From IMG/VR virus record IMGVR_UViG_3300044641_006743: a stretch of DNA of 23,811 nucleotides, one strand, 5' to 3'. The notes under the pieces were generated by a model. The model was not told where the DNA came from. It saw only the letters and a program-made list of their open reading frames with translations, and ran no database searches. The translations under genes and the position numbers were made by a program. The stretch is from an uncultured virus (IMG/VR IMGVR_UViG_3300044641_006743) (lineage: Duplodnaviria; Heunggongvirae; Uroviricota; Caudoviricetes). Below, piece after piece: positions 746-4,209 of the stretch (position 1 is the first letter of the stretch; every line of letters starts with the position of its first letter).

Positions 746-1279
746 ATGCAACCATTAGGACAACGTCGTCCTTTGCTTGCATATGGAGTCCCCGCTGCTG
801 CCGGTCTGGTAGCTGGCGGGGCTCTTGCCGCACAGGGCGAAGATCCCGGTAGTGCACTTCTTGGCGGCGTTGCCGCTGGCCTCGGTGCTCGTGGTGCTTT
901 AGGTGCCGCACGTCTTGCTGGTAAATATGCTGGACCTGCTCGTGCTGCGCTTGCATCAAAAGCAATCGAAGGACTTGGTGCCGTTGGTGCCAACGCTCCA
1001 GCCGGTAGCAAGCGTGCTGCAATGGCACGTACTGCGATGGGACCTTTGGCTGATCTTATTAACAAAGGGATTGGCCCAGAAACAGCCGCTGCTGTTGGCG
1101 TCCCACTTGCCGCTGGTATGGCCGGTCTTGGCGGTGTTGCTGCTGGTGCTGGCCTCGGTGCTTTAGGTATTCCAGGTTTCCAGCAGGGCATGGCTATCGA
1201 TCCAGAAGGCTACAGCTCTAATAACACCCCAAGCGCACAATTCGGCGTCAAATCGCTTGCATCCACACAATATGTGTGA
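746..1279 (+). CDS. Gly/Ala-rich hydrophobic hypothetical protein (virion or membrane associated)
   Basis: ATG at 746 follows GGAGTGAGG overlapping the previous stop. The protein MQPLGQRRPLLAYGVPAAAGLVAGGALAA... has several GxxxG-rich hydrophobic segments. Confidence 0.65.
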   Translation: MQPLGQRRPLLAYGVPAAAGLVAGGALAAQGEDPGSALLGGVAAGLGARGALGAARLAGKYAGPARAALASKAIEGLGAVGANAPAGSKRAAMARTAMGPLADLINKGIGPETAAAVGVPLAAGMAGLGGVAAGAGLGALGIPGFQQGMAIDPEGYSSNNTPSAQFGVKSLASTQYV

Positions 1280-1294
1280 TGTAAGTTAAGTACC

Positions 1295-1303
1295 TGCTAA
1301 AAT
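1295..1303 (+). promoter_or_regulatory. Extended -10 promoter for the capsid operon (TGc-TAAAAT)
   Basis: TGCTAAAAT in an AT-rich intergenic gap, followed by a hairpin (1311-1335) and an SD at 1361. Confidence 0.55.
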
Positions 1304-1310
1304 TTGTGTT

Positions 1311-1335
1311 AGATAAGACACACGTGTCTTTATCT
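1311..1335 (+). promoter_or_regulatory. 5'-UTR hairpin of the MCP transcript
   Basis: Inverted repeat AGATAAGACAC / GTGTCTTTATCT beginning at the expected transcription start. Confidence 0.5.
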
Positions 1336-1375
1336 TTCACCCGATAAAAACACTGACACTGGAGGATAAACCAAG

Positions 1376-1387
1376 GTGTTTATTGAT
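1376..1387 (+). CDS. Major capsid protein, exon 1 (MFID)
   Basis: SD GGAGG at 1361-1365, then GTG TTT ATT GAT. It ends in U as required at a group I 5' splice site and joins in frame to AAC GAC TTT at 2212. Confidence 0.85.
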
Positions 1388-2211
1388 AGCTAGTTCAGAT
1401 CCTGGTAGGTATGACCTTTCAAGATTTGGTAAATAGCTCCGTGGTTACAGTCAAACTTTTCAGCAATCTTTCGATACGAGAGTCCTGCTTCCTTTAGAGC
1501 TTTGATCTGAGCCACGTCTTCCGAAGAAAACTTTCTCAAAGTCTTTTTCGGTTTCCCTTTACTGGCAAAGCCATTGTTTTTATAACAACCGGTTTTCCAG
1601 GCTCTTGTTAAATTTTCTTGTTTGGTAACGATCTCAAGATTGTCAAGTCGATTATTTCTCTTGTCATTATCTTTGTGATCAACTTGAAGGGAAAAGTTAC
1701 TGGTTCCATGAGAACGCAGATCTAATCCCAAAAAAGCTACAGCCATCAAGACGTGAAGATGAAAACGTTTCCTCTTCCCATCAACAAGAACTGAAACACG
1801 GTCATAAACACTGGTTGAACGAGTAGGGATCTCTTGAAAATATTCTTGATTATCGGGATCAAGTTGTTTTTCAAAAGCCTTCCCCTCTTCCGTTAAGTAA
1901 AGATTACCAAATCCAGGAACAAGCTTCGGATTCATGTTGTTCATAAACAAGTTTCCAAAGCGTAGCATGCCTCAACTGAACGCTCAACGTTGTCACCCCA
2001 CCGAGCAATCGATGGGTGCAAACCGGATGAATTCAGGGAAGCCCTAACGTCAAGACGAGGGTAATCCTGAGCCAAGCCAATCAAGCGTGATTGGAAGGTG
2101 CAGAGACTACTGGGTGTAACACGACCTTGTTACGTAATACCAGATTTAGCGTCCGGCATCCCACAGGGATGAAGAGATAGTCCACCCCTCTAAGAAACTA
2201 GAGACCAGGAG
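1388..2211 (+). ncRNA. Group I self-splicing intron (824 nt) in the major capsid gene
   Basis: Core elements: P AATTCAGGGAA 2030-2040, Q AATCCTGAGC 2063-2072, R GTGCAGAGACTA 2098-2109, S AAGAGATAGTCC 2172-2183. Pairings: P3 CCGGATG 2023-2029/CGTCCGG 2150-2156, P7 GACTA/TAGTC, P8 CATCCC/GGGATG, P9 CTCTA/TAGAG. Terminal G at 2211. IGS CGTTGTCA 1988-1995 is complementary to the ligated exons TGAT|AACG with the G.U pair at the splice site. Confidence 0.93.
1390..1944 (-). CDS. Intron-encoded HNH homing endonuclease (HNH_3 / I-HmuI-like core with C-terminal HTH), antisense to the intron
   Basis: Motifs HVLMAVAFLG...QVDHKDNDKRNNRLDNLEIVTKQEN and C-terminal LSYRKIAEKFDCNHGAIYQILKG. The DNA is visibly AT-richer than the flanks. 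Start is either 1968 (track) or ATG 1944, which is favoured by a minus-strand TGc-TACGCT element at 1967-1959. Confidence 0.85.
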   Translation of the reverse strand: MNNMNPKLVPGFGNLYLTEEGKAFEKQLDPDNQEYFQEIPTRSTSVYDRVSVLVDGKRKRFHLHVLMAVAFLGLDLRSHGTSNFSLQVDHKDNDKRNNRLDNLEIVTKQENLTRAWKTGCYKNNGFASKGKPKKTLRKFSSEDVAQIKALKEAGLSYRKIAEKFDCNHGAIYQILKGHTYQDLN

Positions 2212-3369
2212 AACGACTTTCCAAAGATTCTTGGTGCGGAACTTTACCGTCCCCACCCTGCTTACATTGCTGAAATGGCAGTGGAGCCCGTGGTTGTCCA
2301 CGACTTCACCCGTCAGCCCGGTCAAACCGTTCAGTTAGACCGCTACAAGTTCTGGGGTACCCCTGGCACCAAGGATAGCCGGGAGCGTATCGCTGACCAG
2401 ACCATTGGTACTGCCAACAGCCGCAACATCACCAAAGAGAAGGTGTTGGTTGTGTTGAAAGAGTACACCGGCCCTGCAGATCCGGGTGATCCGACCCAGC
2501 CTTCGACCTTCAAGATCGCTCGTGAAACTCTGATTACCGCCCAGCGCCTGCTGCTGGACACCGGTAACCTCAACATGTTCCACCAGTCGATCGGCAGCCT
2601 GACCCTGCTCGATGACTATCGCCGCTGGCGTGACCGCGTGTTCATTGATGAACTCGCCAAAGCCGAAGCCAATGGTGAAGCTTCCAGCACCCAGGGTGGT
2701 TACTACTTCCCCGGTGGCAAAACCAAAGCTGCCAACGGTTCGATTTCTTACACCGCTGCTGAATACACCGCTCAGGTGCAGCAGTTCCAGGTGCGTACCG
2801 ATCTTCTGACCGTTGTTAAGGACCTGCGTAAGCGCAACGTTCCTACCTTCGCTGATGGTCTGTATCGTTGCATCTGCGATCCCACTTTCATGATGCACCT
2901 GCGTCGTGATCCTGACTTCCGTGAGATCGCTCGTTACAGCGGCAACCCTGGCCAAGGCATGTACATGGGCAACCCCATGATGCCTAACAACGCCAGCTTC
3001 TACATGGGTCCCCAAGCAGGTCAGGGTTACTTCCTGGCTGGTGAGCCCGTGATGCCGACCGGCGTTCAGTTTGAAGGCGTGAAGTTCTTCGAGTCGACCA
3101 ACTTCCCGACCAAGACTGTGTCTGCCACCTTCGCTAGCGATGGTGCTAACACCTTCTCTAACCAAGAAGTTGCTCAAGGTTACTTCTTCGGTCCTCAGTC
3201 GATTGGTGTTGGTATCGGCGGCCCGAACGCTCAGGTGCTGATCAACAACAACGATGATTTCAGCCGCTTTATCATTCTGATTTGGCAACTGTATGCTGGT
3301 TTCGAAATCCTGAACAAGGACTTTGTTACCACCGCATTCAGCTTCGTGTCTGATGACGGCGCCATCTGA
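2212..3369 (+). CDS. Major capsid protein, exon 2 (spliced product 389 aa)
   Basis: The frame is open from 2212 (NDFPKILGAELYRPHPAYIAE-MAVEP...), 21 codons before the tracked ATG 2275, which lacks an SD. Strong codon bias, size, a PGQTVQLDRY motif resembling N4-gp56-like HK97-fold capsids and position after a scaffold-like gene support the call. Confidence 0.82.
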   Translation, partial: NDFPKILGAELYRPHPAYIAEMAVEPVVVHDFTRQPGQTVQLDRYKFWGTPGTKDSRERIADQTIGTANSRNITKEKVLVVLKEYTGPADPGDPTQPSTFKIARETLITAQRLLLDTGNLNMFHQSIGSLTLLDDYRRWRDRVFIDELAKAEANGEASSTQGGYYFPGGKTKAANGSISYTAAEYTAQVQQFQVRTDLLTVVKDLRKRNVPTFADGLYRCICDPTFMMHLRRDPDFREIARYSGNPGQGMYMGNPMMPNNASFYMGPQAGQGYFLAGEPVMPTGVQFEGVKFFESTNFPTKTVSATFASDGANTFSNQEVAQGYFFGPQSIGVGIGGPNAQVLINNNDDFSRFIILIWQLYAGFEILNKDFVTTAFSFVSDDGAI

Positions 3370-3402
3370 TAAAGATATAAATCCAACTTAAAGGAGAAAT
3401 AA

Positions 3403-4209
3403 ATGTCCTACTTGTCTTCCAAAAAGATCTATCCAGGTAACTGGACCAACGCCCTGAACGGCTGGTACAAGAACATTGATACCAACGACAACGGTACCAA
3501 TGATGCTTCCAAGGGCGGCCCCACCTCGGTGCTGGCCGTCCCCGGCTATCGCTATTTCCAGCAGCGTGGTTACGTTGCTGTGGCTTGGGCCTCTGGTGAT
3601 GCCGCCACCAAGGGTCAGACCATGGATGTGATCGTTCCTTCGCCTTACCGCCAGGACGACACCCGCCCCGACATCACCGGCATGGTGATCTCTGGCAGCT
3701 CCACCCAGCCTGCTTTCGTGTATCGCGCTGCGATCTCAGTTGCTTCTGGTTGGGGTGATGGTCGTGTTGCCACCGGCATTTATGCCGCCACTGGTAACGT
3801 CATCACCTTCGGTCGCAATGACAGCGGCCCTGTGGCTGTGACTGGCGTGGGTGAGCCTATTGCTCAGGCCAACCTGACCTCCACCGTTTCCGGTGATGCT
3901 TCGGCCAAGATTGTGTTTGCTGCTGGCTCCCAGGCCCTCAGCTCTACTCCTTTCCTGACCGCAACTGGTGCCACTGGCGTTGGTCCTTCCGGCGTCTACA
4001 AGTCTCTGACTGCTGCTACCACCTTCAAGGTGTTCGCTCGCGGTACTACCACTGACACTGGCGTGTCTGGTGGTGTGTATCTGGCTGATGCTGACAACAA
4101 CGCCGGCCTGAAAGGTTACCTGGTGGTTGAAGTCTGCTACATCCAGCCTGATGACGCACCTGGCTACGAAGATATCGAAGAGTATATCCTCGGCCGCACT
4201 GTTAGCTGA
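3403..4209 (+). CDS. Abundant structural protein, probably capsid decoration or minor capsid protein
   Basis: Strong SD AAGGAGA, MCP-like codon bias, G/T/A/S-rich beta-type composition and position directly after the MCP. Confidence 0.55.
   Translation: MSYLSSKKIYPGNWTNALNGWYKNIDTNDNGTNDASKGGPTSVLAVPGYRYFQQRGYVAVAWASGDAATKGQTMDVIVPSPYRQDDTRPDITGMVISGSSTQPAFVYRAAISVASGWGDGRVATGIYAATGNVITFGRNDSGPVAVTGVGEPIAQANLTSTVSGDASAKIVFAAGSQALSSTPFLTATGATGVGPSGVYKSLTAATTFKVFARGTTTDTGVSGGVYLADADNNAGLKGYLVVEVCYIQPDDAPGYEDIEEYILGRTVS

Follow-up and report, generated by a model that had tools for sequence, protein, structure and literature searches.

Near the left end of a 23,811-nucleotide stretch of DNA from an uncultured tailed virus (Caudoviricetes; IMG/VR record IMGVR_UViG_3300044641_006743; hereafter the window, meaning the whole stretch, with positions counted from its first letter) lies a gene for a major capsid protein that is broken after its fourth codon by an insert of 824 nucleotides (nt). 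On its sequence the insert is a group I intron, and most of its length is filled by a gene for an HNH homing endonuclease that reads in the opposite direction to the capsid gene. An earlier note on this DNA had described the insert as a group I intron, which held, and had left the antisense gene within it unmentioned. We consider it very probable that the whole is a mobile group I intron with an antisense HNH endonuclease gene, seated in a capsid gene from whose transcript it is predicted to be spliced. The features of the locus are as follows:

1361 to 1366, plus strand: GGAGGA, Shine-Dalgarno-like site of the capsid gene, read in the sequence.
1376 to 1387, plus strand: coding part of exon 1, GTG TTT ATT GAT (M F I D), its last U being the predicted 5' splice site.
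1388 to 2211, plus strand: group I intron, 824 nt, first base A, last base G (omega-G, 2211), recognised by its match to RF00028 and its precise absence in relatives.
1391 to 1393, plus strand: TAG in the capsid frame, the second codon of the intron; without splicing, translation from the capsid start would end after M-F-I-D-S.
1390 to 1935, minus strand: gene for an HNH homing endonuclease of 181 amino acids, ATG at 1935 to 1933 and stop TAG at 1392 to 1390, recognised by HNH_3, PHROG 59 and I-HmuI.
1959 to 1987, minus strand: promoter-like site of the endonuclease gene, -35 TTGAGC (1987 to 1982), TGn (1967 to 1965) and -10 TACGCT (1964 to 1959), recognised by conservation.
2212 to 3369, plus strand: exon 2 of the major capsid gene, 385 codons and a stop, recognised by PHROG 1357, an AlphaFold model and Foldseek.

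The landmarks from which the interruption had been read in the earlier note (a Shine-Dalgarno site, GTG TTT ATT GAT, an 824-nt insert ending in G, then AAC GAC TTT CCA AAG) all lie where it had placed them. Codon 4 (GAT) ends at 1387 and the insert, 1388-2211, separates it from the AAC at 2212, where exon 2 starts in the same frame as the open reading frame (ORF) at 2275-3369. The nearest in-frame stop upstream of the capsid GTG is the TAA at 1367-1369, and GTG is therefore the first possible start. ATG 2275 is codon 26 of the spliced gene, whose product would have 4 + 385 = 389 amino acids; the mechanically called ORF has 364, which bears out the expectation that standard gene callers would shorten this protein by 25 residues. 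Since positions 1388 and 2212 are both A, the boundary could be shifted by one base; 1388-2211 was chosen by the rule that the exon ends in U and the intron in G. At the 5' end of the intron, AGC TAG or AGC TAA is found in 25 of the 25 forms bearing a homing endonuclease gene (HEG) whose 5' end is available. In the window the palindrome CTAG at 1390-1393 provides both the stop of the endonuclease gene on the minus strand and the in-frame TAG of the capsid frame on the plus strand. An intein or a programmed frameshift in place of an intron was ruled out by that in-frame stop at 1391 and by the match to the ribozyme model.

Natural variation at the site marks the same boundaries. The best 80 of at least 599 relatives found with exon 2, together with Synechococcus phage S-EIVl, made up 81 loci, which were classified by script:

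58 of 81 loci, including S-EIVl: intronless, with GTG TTY ATY GAY leading directly into AAC/ACC GAY TTY CC.
12 of 81 loci: insert of 824-827 nt (L002, L004, L005, L007, L009, L012, L013, L018, L021, L056, L065, L076).
4 of 81 loci: ORF-less insert of 276-277 nt (L011, L040, L045, L051).
7 of 81 loci: locus cut at its 5' end and ending with the 3' part of the intron (L006, L010, L033, L037, L039, L053, L069).

The intron is thus present at the same site in 23 of the 81 loci and precisely absent from 58, where, as in S-EIVl, exon 1 is contiguous with AAC GAY TTT CC; because the absence is precise and at the same site, the predicted splice sites are the boundaries of a natural insertion/deletion polymorphism. 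The GGAGGAT upstream of the start is kept in all 74 loci in which the start region is present. S-EIVl is the closest public phage (81.8% identity over the aligning parts by blastn), and at the corresponding site it has one unbroken ORF of 383 amino acids, which is preceded by GGAGGAT, opens with GTG and has MFIDTDFPKILGAELYRPHPAYICEMAVEP as its N-terminus; the gene without an insert begins MFIDTDFPKILGAELY. Intronless homologues, S-EIVl and the 58 loci alike, begin MFID(T/N)DFPKILGAELY, as had been foreseen for them. RF00028 was not matched in G001, the nearest record (14 kb), which as a fragment is uninformative on this point.

A second lineage of the element was reached with the protein P0073 as probe (176 amino acids, 64% identical to the window endonuclease), which found 45 loci; 12 of these were scanned, 11 of them from the first 25, whose endonucleases are 59-90% identical to P0073. 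The ribozyme (RF00028) lies on the strand opposite to the endonuclease gene in 11 of the 12, with L107 as the exception, and scores 82.6-99.4 bits in all 11 scanned second-lineage loci. All five second-lineage loci that were read carry the intron at the same capsid site, between ATG TTY (TGG in L106) ATC GAT and AAC/AAT GAY TTY CC; the second-lineage introns used as alignment rows are 802-810 nt long, and 25 loci of this lineage carry the insert. The exception, L107:2001-3089, has its ribozyme (60.7 bits) and an HNH endonuclease gene (36% identity) on one strand, the gene some 290 nt upstream of the ribozyme, and is a sense-oriented counterpart in another viral contig. A more distant relative, L106, has two group I introns in a single capsid gene (L106:1377-1983, minus strand of the locus), the first at the codon-4 site (RF00028, 82.6 bits) with an antisense endonuclease gene and the second (65.7 bits) starting some 100 nt deeper in the gene, where it follows ...GTT CAT GAC TTT.

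Within the insert, RF00028 matches 1963-2204 on the plus strand at 89.1 bits (gathering score 50; E 7e-22) and spans the whole model (positions 1-253 of 253); there is no other Rfam hit in the 23.8-kb window. The covariance-model search proposed for 1985-2211 thus came out in favour of an intron. The elements of the ribozyme are these:

1384 to 1390, plus strand: 5' strand of P1, TGAT/AGC across the 5' splice site, pairing with 1989-1995 (GTTGTCA).
1393 to 1398, plus strand: 5' strand of P1a, GTTCAG, extending the P1 hairpin, partner 1976-1981.
1400 to 1406, plus strand: TCCTGGT, strand of a long-range helix, complementary to ACCAGGA at 2204-2210.
1976 to 1981, plus strand: 3' strand of P1a, CTGAAC, partner 1393-1398.
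1988 to 1995, plus strand: internal guide sequence CGTTGTCA, of which 1989-1995 is the 3' strand of P1 and 1988-1991 pairs with exon 2 (P10).
1997 to 2203, plus strand: ribozyme core, recognised by covariation, with its helices as in the next lines.
1997 to 2016, plus strand: P2, with a GCAA loop.
2023 to 2029 with 2150 to 2156, plus strand: P3.
2033 to 2038 with 2065 to 2070, plus strand: P4.
2042 to 2045 with 2058 to 2061, plus strand: P5.
2048 to 2050 with 2055 to 2057, plus strand: P5a.
2071 to 2073 with 2097 to 2099, plus strand: P6.
2077 to 2082 with 2089 to 2094, plus strand: P6a.
2103 and 2105 to 2109 with 2178 to 2183, plus strand: P7.
2110 to 2113 with 2140 to 2143, plus strand: P7.1.
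2116 to 2121 with 2128 to 2133, plus strand: P7.2.
2157 to 2162 with 2166 to 2171, plus strand: P8.
2188 to 2192 with 2199 to 2203, plus strand: P9.
2204 to 2210, plus strand: ACCAGGA, directly 5' of omega-G, partner of 1400-1406.

The guide pairs with both exons: its GTCA with the exon TGAT, U1387 standing opposite G1992 as a wobble, and its CGTT (1988-1991) with the AACG of exon 2 (2212-2215), which makes P10. P1 is paired at 7 of 7 positions in all 28 sequences with both ends, P10 in 100% of cells over 29 rows, and all 28 introns end in G. In the second lineage (13 rows, L082-L106) an exon CGAT meets a guide GTTGTCG, a compensatory change between exon and guide (U-to-C, A-to-G). Given these pairings and boundaries that coincide with a natural polymorphism, the claim that a guide at 1988-1995, pairing with TGAT and AACG including a G.U wobble, fixes both splice sites is sustained. 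In the P1a extension all 6 pairs form in each of the 28 sequences; the helix comes in six versions, every one of them complementary. The ORF-less forms show the minimal intron, in which P1 is followed by an internal loop, the 6-bp P1a and a small GNRA-capped tip hairpin; in the long introns about 565 nt replaces this tip hairpin beyond P1a.

Covariation was assessed on an alignment of window positions 1969-2223 with 28 other distinct rows (15 of the window lineage, 13 of the second), against a hand-drawn structure of 68 pairs comprising P10, P2, P3, P4, P5, P5a, P6, P6a, P7, P7.1, P7.2, P8 and P9. Over the 68 pairs and 29 rows 94.8% of cells are paired, falling to 33-41% when the partners are slid by 1-3 columns, and 25 pairs have changed on both sides, compared with 1-7 in the slid structures and a mean of 14.1 in shuffles, none of 500 of which reaches the observed number. 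The P3-P9 core with its P3/P7 pseudoknot, which had been called readable from the letters alone, is supported by this covariation. P7.1 and P7.2 are only 72-75% paired in the alignment because of the placement of MAFFT gaps in the 13 second-lineage rows; folded alone, the hairpin (2110-2143) forms in all 12 sequence versions, its helices being fully exchanged between the lineages. Subgroup IA is marked by an additional hairpin, P7.1/P7.2, between P7 and P3' and, since the hairpin is present here, the intron looks like a member of that subgroup. The minimum free energy (MFE) fold of a single ORF-less precursor sequence also recovers P2-P9.

The same fold contains the long-range helix 1400-1406/2204-2210, which has 7 of 7 pairs in 26 of 28 sequences (6 of 7 in L065, 2 of 7 in L106) and one double, compensatory change in the L082 lineage; to our knowledge it matches no named group I helix. 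A role of the 1400-1406 strand in masking the Shine-Dalgarno site was considered and dropped, as no such site precedes the ATG of the second lineage.

Beyond P1a the insert is occupied by the endonuclease gene; no plus-strand ORF of at least 40 amino acids was found in it. The mechanical minus-strand ORF spans 1390-1968 (192 amino acids from ATG 1968), and its product matches Pfam HNH_3 (39.8 bits, cut-off 24.8) and the HNH endonucleases of PHROG 59 (E 1.5e-28), and aligns over residues 54-187 with I-HmuI (1u3e; E 3.2e-5), its C-terminal region aligning with the C-terminus of that enzyme. None of the 13 complete long introns has a broken copy of the ORF, and their DNA differs by up to 18%. The pairwise ratio of non-synonymous to synonymous change (dN/dS) has a median of 0.10 and a range of 0.058-0.172 (over the 77 pairs whose dS exceeds 0.05; the highest dS is about 1.4), and of its 181 codons 67, 35 and 134 vary at the first, second and third position, respectively. 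From the low dN/dS and the excess of third-position variation it follows that the antisense ORF is, judged by its pattern of substitution, a maintained protein-coding gene under purifying selection. It is closely fitted to the ribozyme: the stop codon lies within the 5' strand of P1, 2 nt inside the 5' end of the intron, and the last six codons cover the 5' strand of P1a.

Upstream of the gene, with its -35 box directly beside the guide sequence, the window has a promoter-like site in which TTGAGC is followed after 17 nt by TGC TACGCT (1967 to 1959). The pattern TTGA[GC][CT], 15-18 nt, TAnnnT is kept in 22 of 26 distinct HEG-bearing rows, 20 of these 22 with TGn; of 5200 shuffled segments, 60 contain it. 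The inner positions of the -10 differ freely among the rows. As the rows are related, the figure speaks of conservation rather than of independent recurrence. If used, the site contains ATG 1968, and the start would then lie at 1935 to 1933, giving 181 amino acids. An ATG or GTG there is conserved in all rows except L106, and many database homologues of 181-184 amino acids agree with it; we take this start also to fit the N-terminus of I-HmuI.

The interrupted gene itself is, by homology and a predicted fold, the HK97-fold major capsid gene of an S-EIV1-like freshwater cyanophage. Residues 31-375 of its product match PHROG 1357, 'major head protein' (E 1.1e-16); Pfam had no family for the protein or its neighbours. 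An AlphaFold model built with 33 diverse sequences has a mean predicted local distance difference test (pLDDT) of 80.4 and a predicted template modelling score (pTM) of 0.79, and its best Foldseek match in the PDB is cyanophage P-SCSP1u 8i4l_A (E 4e-13, TM 0.51/0.59). The top matches are capsid proteins of tailed phages, and lower ones include the capsid of a haloarchaeal tailed virus, that of a gene transfer agent and two encapsulins.

The 25 N-terminal residues that depend on the spliced start are modelled with pLDDT 52-92. In an alignment of the window protein with 32 library relatives, down to about 25% identity, 29 of the 32 begin 4-13 residues ahead of the motif D-FP..LLG..L..P.P.Y, while P0114 and P0230 begin inside or after it. 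None of the 32 begins at MAVEP, the sequence at ATG 2275, where such starts had been named as evidence against an intron; six short database proteins (P0134, P0141, P0149, P0151, P0158, P0229) do begin there, at query residue 22, and would fit truncated gene calls on intron-bearing contigs.

Annotation of this gene is fragile in the public record as well. GenBank record KJ410740.1 of S-EIVl (60784-62010, corresponding to L001:2511-3737) mis-annotates it as a minus-strand 'hypothetical protein' (L001 2511-3272) and a short plus-strand coding sequence (3267-3737), where the actual capsid ORF of 383 amino acids lies on the plus strand at L001 2586-3737. An intron-aware check would catch a capsid start miscalled at ATG 2275, and even the intronless gene of S-EIVl has been misread.

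Established group I chemistry, applied to this anatomy, suggests how the element would work. The late capsid transcript would carry the ribosome-binding site and the GTG with its four codons on exon 1; TGAT/AGC would pair with the guide GTTGTCA some 600 nt downstream to form P1, the P2-P9 core would fold, and guanosine would attack after U1387. The guide's CGTT would then align the AACG of exon 2 in P10, and the exons would be ligated after G2211 to read TTTATTGAT-AACGACTTT, yielding a capsid protein of 389 amino acids that starts MFIDNDFPK. Translation of unspliced RNA from the capsid start codon would stop at the TAG at 1391, after the five residues MFIDS. The endonuclease gene, standing in place of the P1a tip, would be transcribed leftwards from its own promoter, and its product presumably nicks or cuts intronless capsid alleles in mixed infections, whose repair would copy the intron in (homing).

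The distribution of the intron fits an element that moves. Intron presence was mapped on a maximum-likelihood exon-2 tree of 82 rows (quick search, Shimodaira-Hasegawa approximate likelihood-ratio support), which does not distinguish gain from loss; it needs at least 17 changes, at least 14 of them forced by starred branches; shuffles need a mean of 20.7, and 18 of 500 are as low as the observed value. Over 1155 columns the exon 2 of the window is 100% identical to that of the intronless L003, from which it follows that the element was recently mobile. Together these sequence comparisons show that turnover of the intron has been recent and repeated.

Several observations weigh against this reading, the most direct of them in RNA. 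Small shares of the stretch were detected in six RNA runs, four of which were examined as contigs. The joined form, 1387 to 2212, occurs in one contig of X17 (shorter side 33 nt) and one of X19 (shorter side 94 nt); both contigs differ from the window and intronless alleles are common, and they are not counted as splicing, as they may be transcripts or DNA of intronless phages. X17 also has another contig, which crosses the 3' splice site in unspliced form. ORF-less intron forms are present in X17 and X19. The contigs of X18 (one study) cover 1383-2212 only, with none on the exons; the X18 contigs could be stable excised intron RNA, at most a weak hint and unused as support. The MFE fold of the ORF-less precursor lacks P1 and P1a and has a z-score of only -1.68, and the covariation rows belong to two main lineages, so that many of the compensatory cells trace to few events. 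On the endonuclease side, among families for a C-terminal helix-turn-helix DNA-binding domain, HTH_38 scores 23.5 bits, below its curated cut-off of 27, and HTH_23 and HTH_7 are likewise below theirs, although the region aligns with the C-terminus of I-HmuI. A stricter generic sigma-70 scan of 1150-2500 found no promoter upstream of the gene, its two promoter-like sites both lying within the endonuclease ORF and, with one terminator-like site, being at the level of shuffles in number; the -10 of the conserved site is weak in the window (TACGCT), and 4 of the 26 rows are without the pattern. Lastly, an internal capsid start at ATG 2275 is compatible with the sequence alone.

That internal start belongs to a reading in which the ribozyme is a dead relic and translation of the capsid protein starts at MAVEP..., with the loss of 25 residues, or in which the phage genome is defective. 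Splicing is unobserved in the RNA-library data, and ATG 2275 is conserved in S-EIVl too; cyanobacterial genes are often without a Shine-Dalgarno site, so that the missing one before 2275 is not decisive. A relic would nevertheless hardly be expected to keep 94.8% pairing with compensatory changes over 29 diverged rows and to have P1 and P10 intact in 28 of 28. The 25 residues it would dispense with are conserved down to about 25% identity and modelled with pLDDT 52-92, and the intron is carried by 23 of 81 related contigs, the stretch itself being detected in 14 DNA runs of 11 studies (at least 0.61 of sampled words in each); we regard a relic as highly improbable. The breadth of this occurrence bears equally on the suspicion that the insert is an assembly artefact or a metagenomic chimera. 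The window does come from a metagenomic assembly, but the same insert stands at the same site in 23 other contigs and 25 second-lineage loci, and its words occur in the 14 DNA runs; we give an artefact next to no credence. A subtler possibility is that the intron splices while the antisense ORF is inactive as a homing enzyme, its patchiness arising from ordinary recombination in co-infections and from precise intron loss. The exon-2 tree, blind to gain versus loss, would allow this, as would the ORF-less introns of four loci. An idle ORF sits poorly, however, with integrity in 13 of 13 introns despite dS of up to about 1.4 and a dN/dS of 0.06-0.17, with an HNH motif region that matches HNH_3 and I-HmuI, and with a promoter-like site kept in 22 of 26 rows, and we hold this version of events to be quite improbable.

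Returning to a mobile intron with a working endonuclease gene, one may ask whether that gene could also act as a switch. Polymerase running through it in the direction of the capsid start, or base pairing between its mRNA and the P1 loop (about 550 nt) of the capsid precursor RNA, might gate the formation of P1 and with it capsid synthesis, so that the intron would time a 'spread' and a 'build capsids' phase. The idea springs from the promoter-like site in the P1/guide region, the coding overlap with the 5' strands of P1 and P1a, and the helix 1400-1406/2204-2210; with a mere 12 nt between start codon and splice site, P1 would also have to form in competition with the loading of ribosomes on the same RNA. 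If true, an early phase of spread and a late phase of capsid building would be set by the intron, although we think such a switch unlikely.

The layout has a published precedent. According to the available text of Pope et al. 2013 (PLoS One, PMC3706429), the major capsid gene of mycobacteriophage LittleE has an 819-bp intron with a homing-endonuclease frame on the bottom strand, its splicing proved by reverse-transcription PCR and N-terminal sequencing, and a capsid-gene intron of lactococcal phage Tuc2009 is cited there. A capsid intron with an antisense endonuclease gene is already known as a kind of element from LittleE, and the suggestion that an intron in a structural gene is unusual accordingly survives as to the intron itself but not as to its implied novelty. 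The LittleE intron as described shares with that of the window a length of about 0.8 kb, an exon ending in U, an intron ending in G, a leftward endonuclease and absence from sister phages. It differs in lying near the delta-domain processing site rather than after codon 4; its ORF is called HNH in a figure legend and LAGLIDADG-like in the text, whereas the window enzyme is HNH and I-HmuI-like; and its authors call it 'most likely a group I' where the window intron has a clear covariance-model hit and covariation. No mycobacteriophage was among the 23 records matched by blastn with window 1000-3400 and, because no similarity to mycobacteriophages appears there, the resemblance seems to be one of layout and not of descent, the window providing an independent case.

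Among single enzymes, I-HmuI of Bacillus phage SPO1 (PDB 1u3e) is likewise an HNH endonuclease within a phage group I intron, to which the window enzyme aligns at the E value of 3.2e-5 given above; it is a nicking enzyme encoded on the sense strand, in a DNA-polymerase gene. The freshwater cyanophage Pf-WMP3, as described in the available text of PMC3428280, likewise has an HNH homing endonuclease, I-PfoP3I, whose gene lies in a group I (IA2) intron; the host gene there is the DNA polymerase and not a capsid gene, and the likeness is one of description. Antisense endonuclease genes are also described in group I introns of nuclear ribosomal DNA (rDNA), as for I-DirII of Didymium (PMC3073962; PMC9548176, in the parts available), which shares with the window an endonuclease on the strand opposite to the transcript of the intron's host and a promoter of its own, in the window a promoter-like site. 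According to the same texts the rDNA-intron enzymes are eukaryotic His-Cys box proteins with an RNA polymerase II promoter, a spliceosomal intron and poly(A), where the window has a bacterial-type promoter-like site and a protein-coding host gene.

The words 'antisense', 'opposite', 'orientation' and 'capsid' are absent from a 2014 review of bacterial group I introns (PMC3984707), a silence which suggests that the layout is rare in print, though already published. Among literature titles and abstract openings, no report of a capsid intron in S-EIV1-like cyanophages was found; the lineage itself is widespread, according to the title of PMC4542036.

What the locus offers is a set of alleles. Empty sites, introns with an endonuclease gene and introns without one, all three stages expected of homing, occur among related lake and freshwater contigs, and intron-bearing and intronless alleles with an identical flanking exon offer a handy natural setting in which to measure how introns are gained and lost in uncultured phage populations. 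The element also lends itself to asking how well a late gene with high expression can bear an intron that lies 12 nt beyond its start codon and has an oppositely transcribed gene within.

Related ribozyme cores are found in other phages. Segment 2021-2204 is about 70-77% similar (blastn, H2-H12) to sequences in Vibrio and Klebsiella phages and one Escherichia phage. In Vibrio phage 1.187.O (MG592553.1, L127:1501-2354) the terminase is annotated as three 'terminase-like' coding sequences, with two blastn matches to the intron core around and between them, and on this sequence evidence its terL probably holds unannotated group I introns; it differs from the window in its host gene and in having no antisense endonuclease annotated. 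Jumbo gut phages have many group I introns in terL and other genes, according to the available text of PMC12880540.

Upstream of the capsid ribosome-binding site an inverted repeat, AAGACA..TGTCTT, with a T-rich run lies at 1316-1335; S-EIVl has a different sequence at this place that is still self-complementary, and the repeat could be the terminator of the upstream gene or a processing site. The generic scan placed a terminator-like site on the minus strand at 1353-1324, in a count no higher than in shuffles. Further upstream are two overlapping long ORFs, 3-740 (rich in Pro/Ser/Ala/Gln) and 677-1279 (rich in Gly/Ala), for which no Pfam or PHROG match was found and which, by their position, could encode scaffold or internal proteins.

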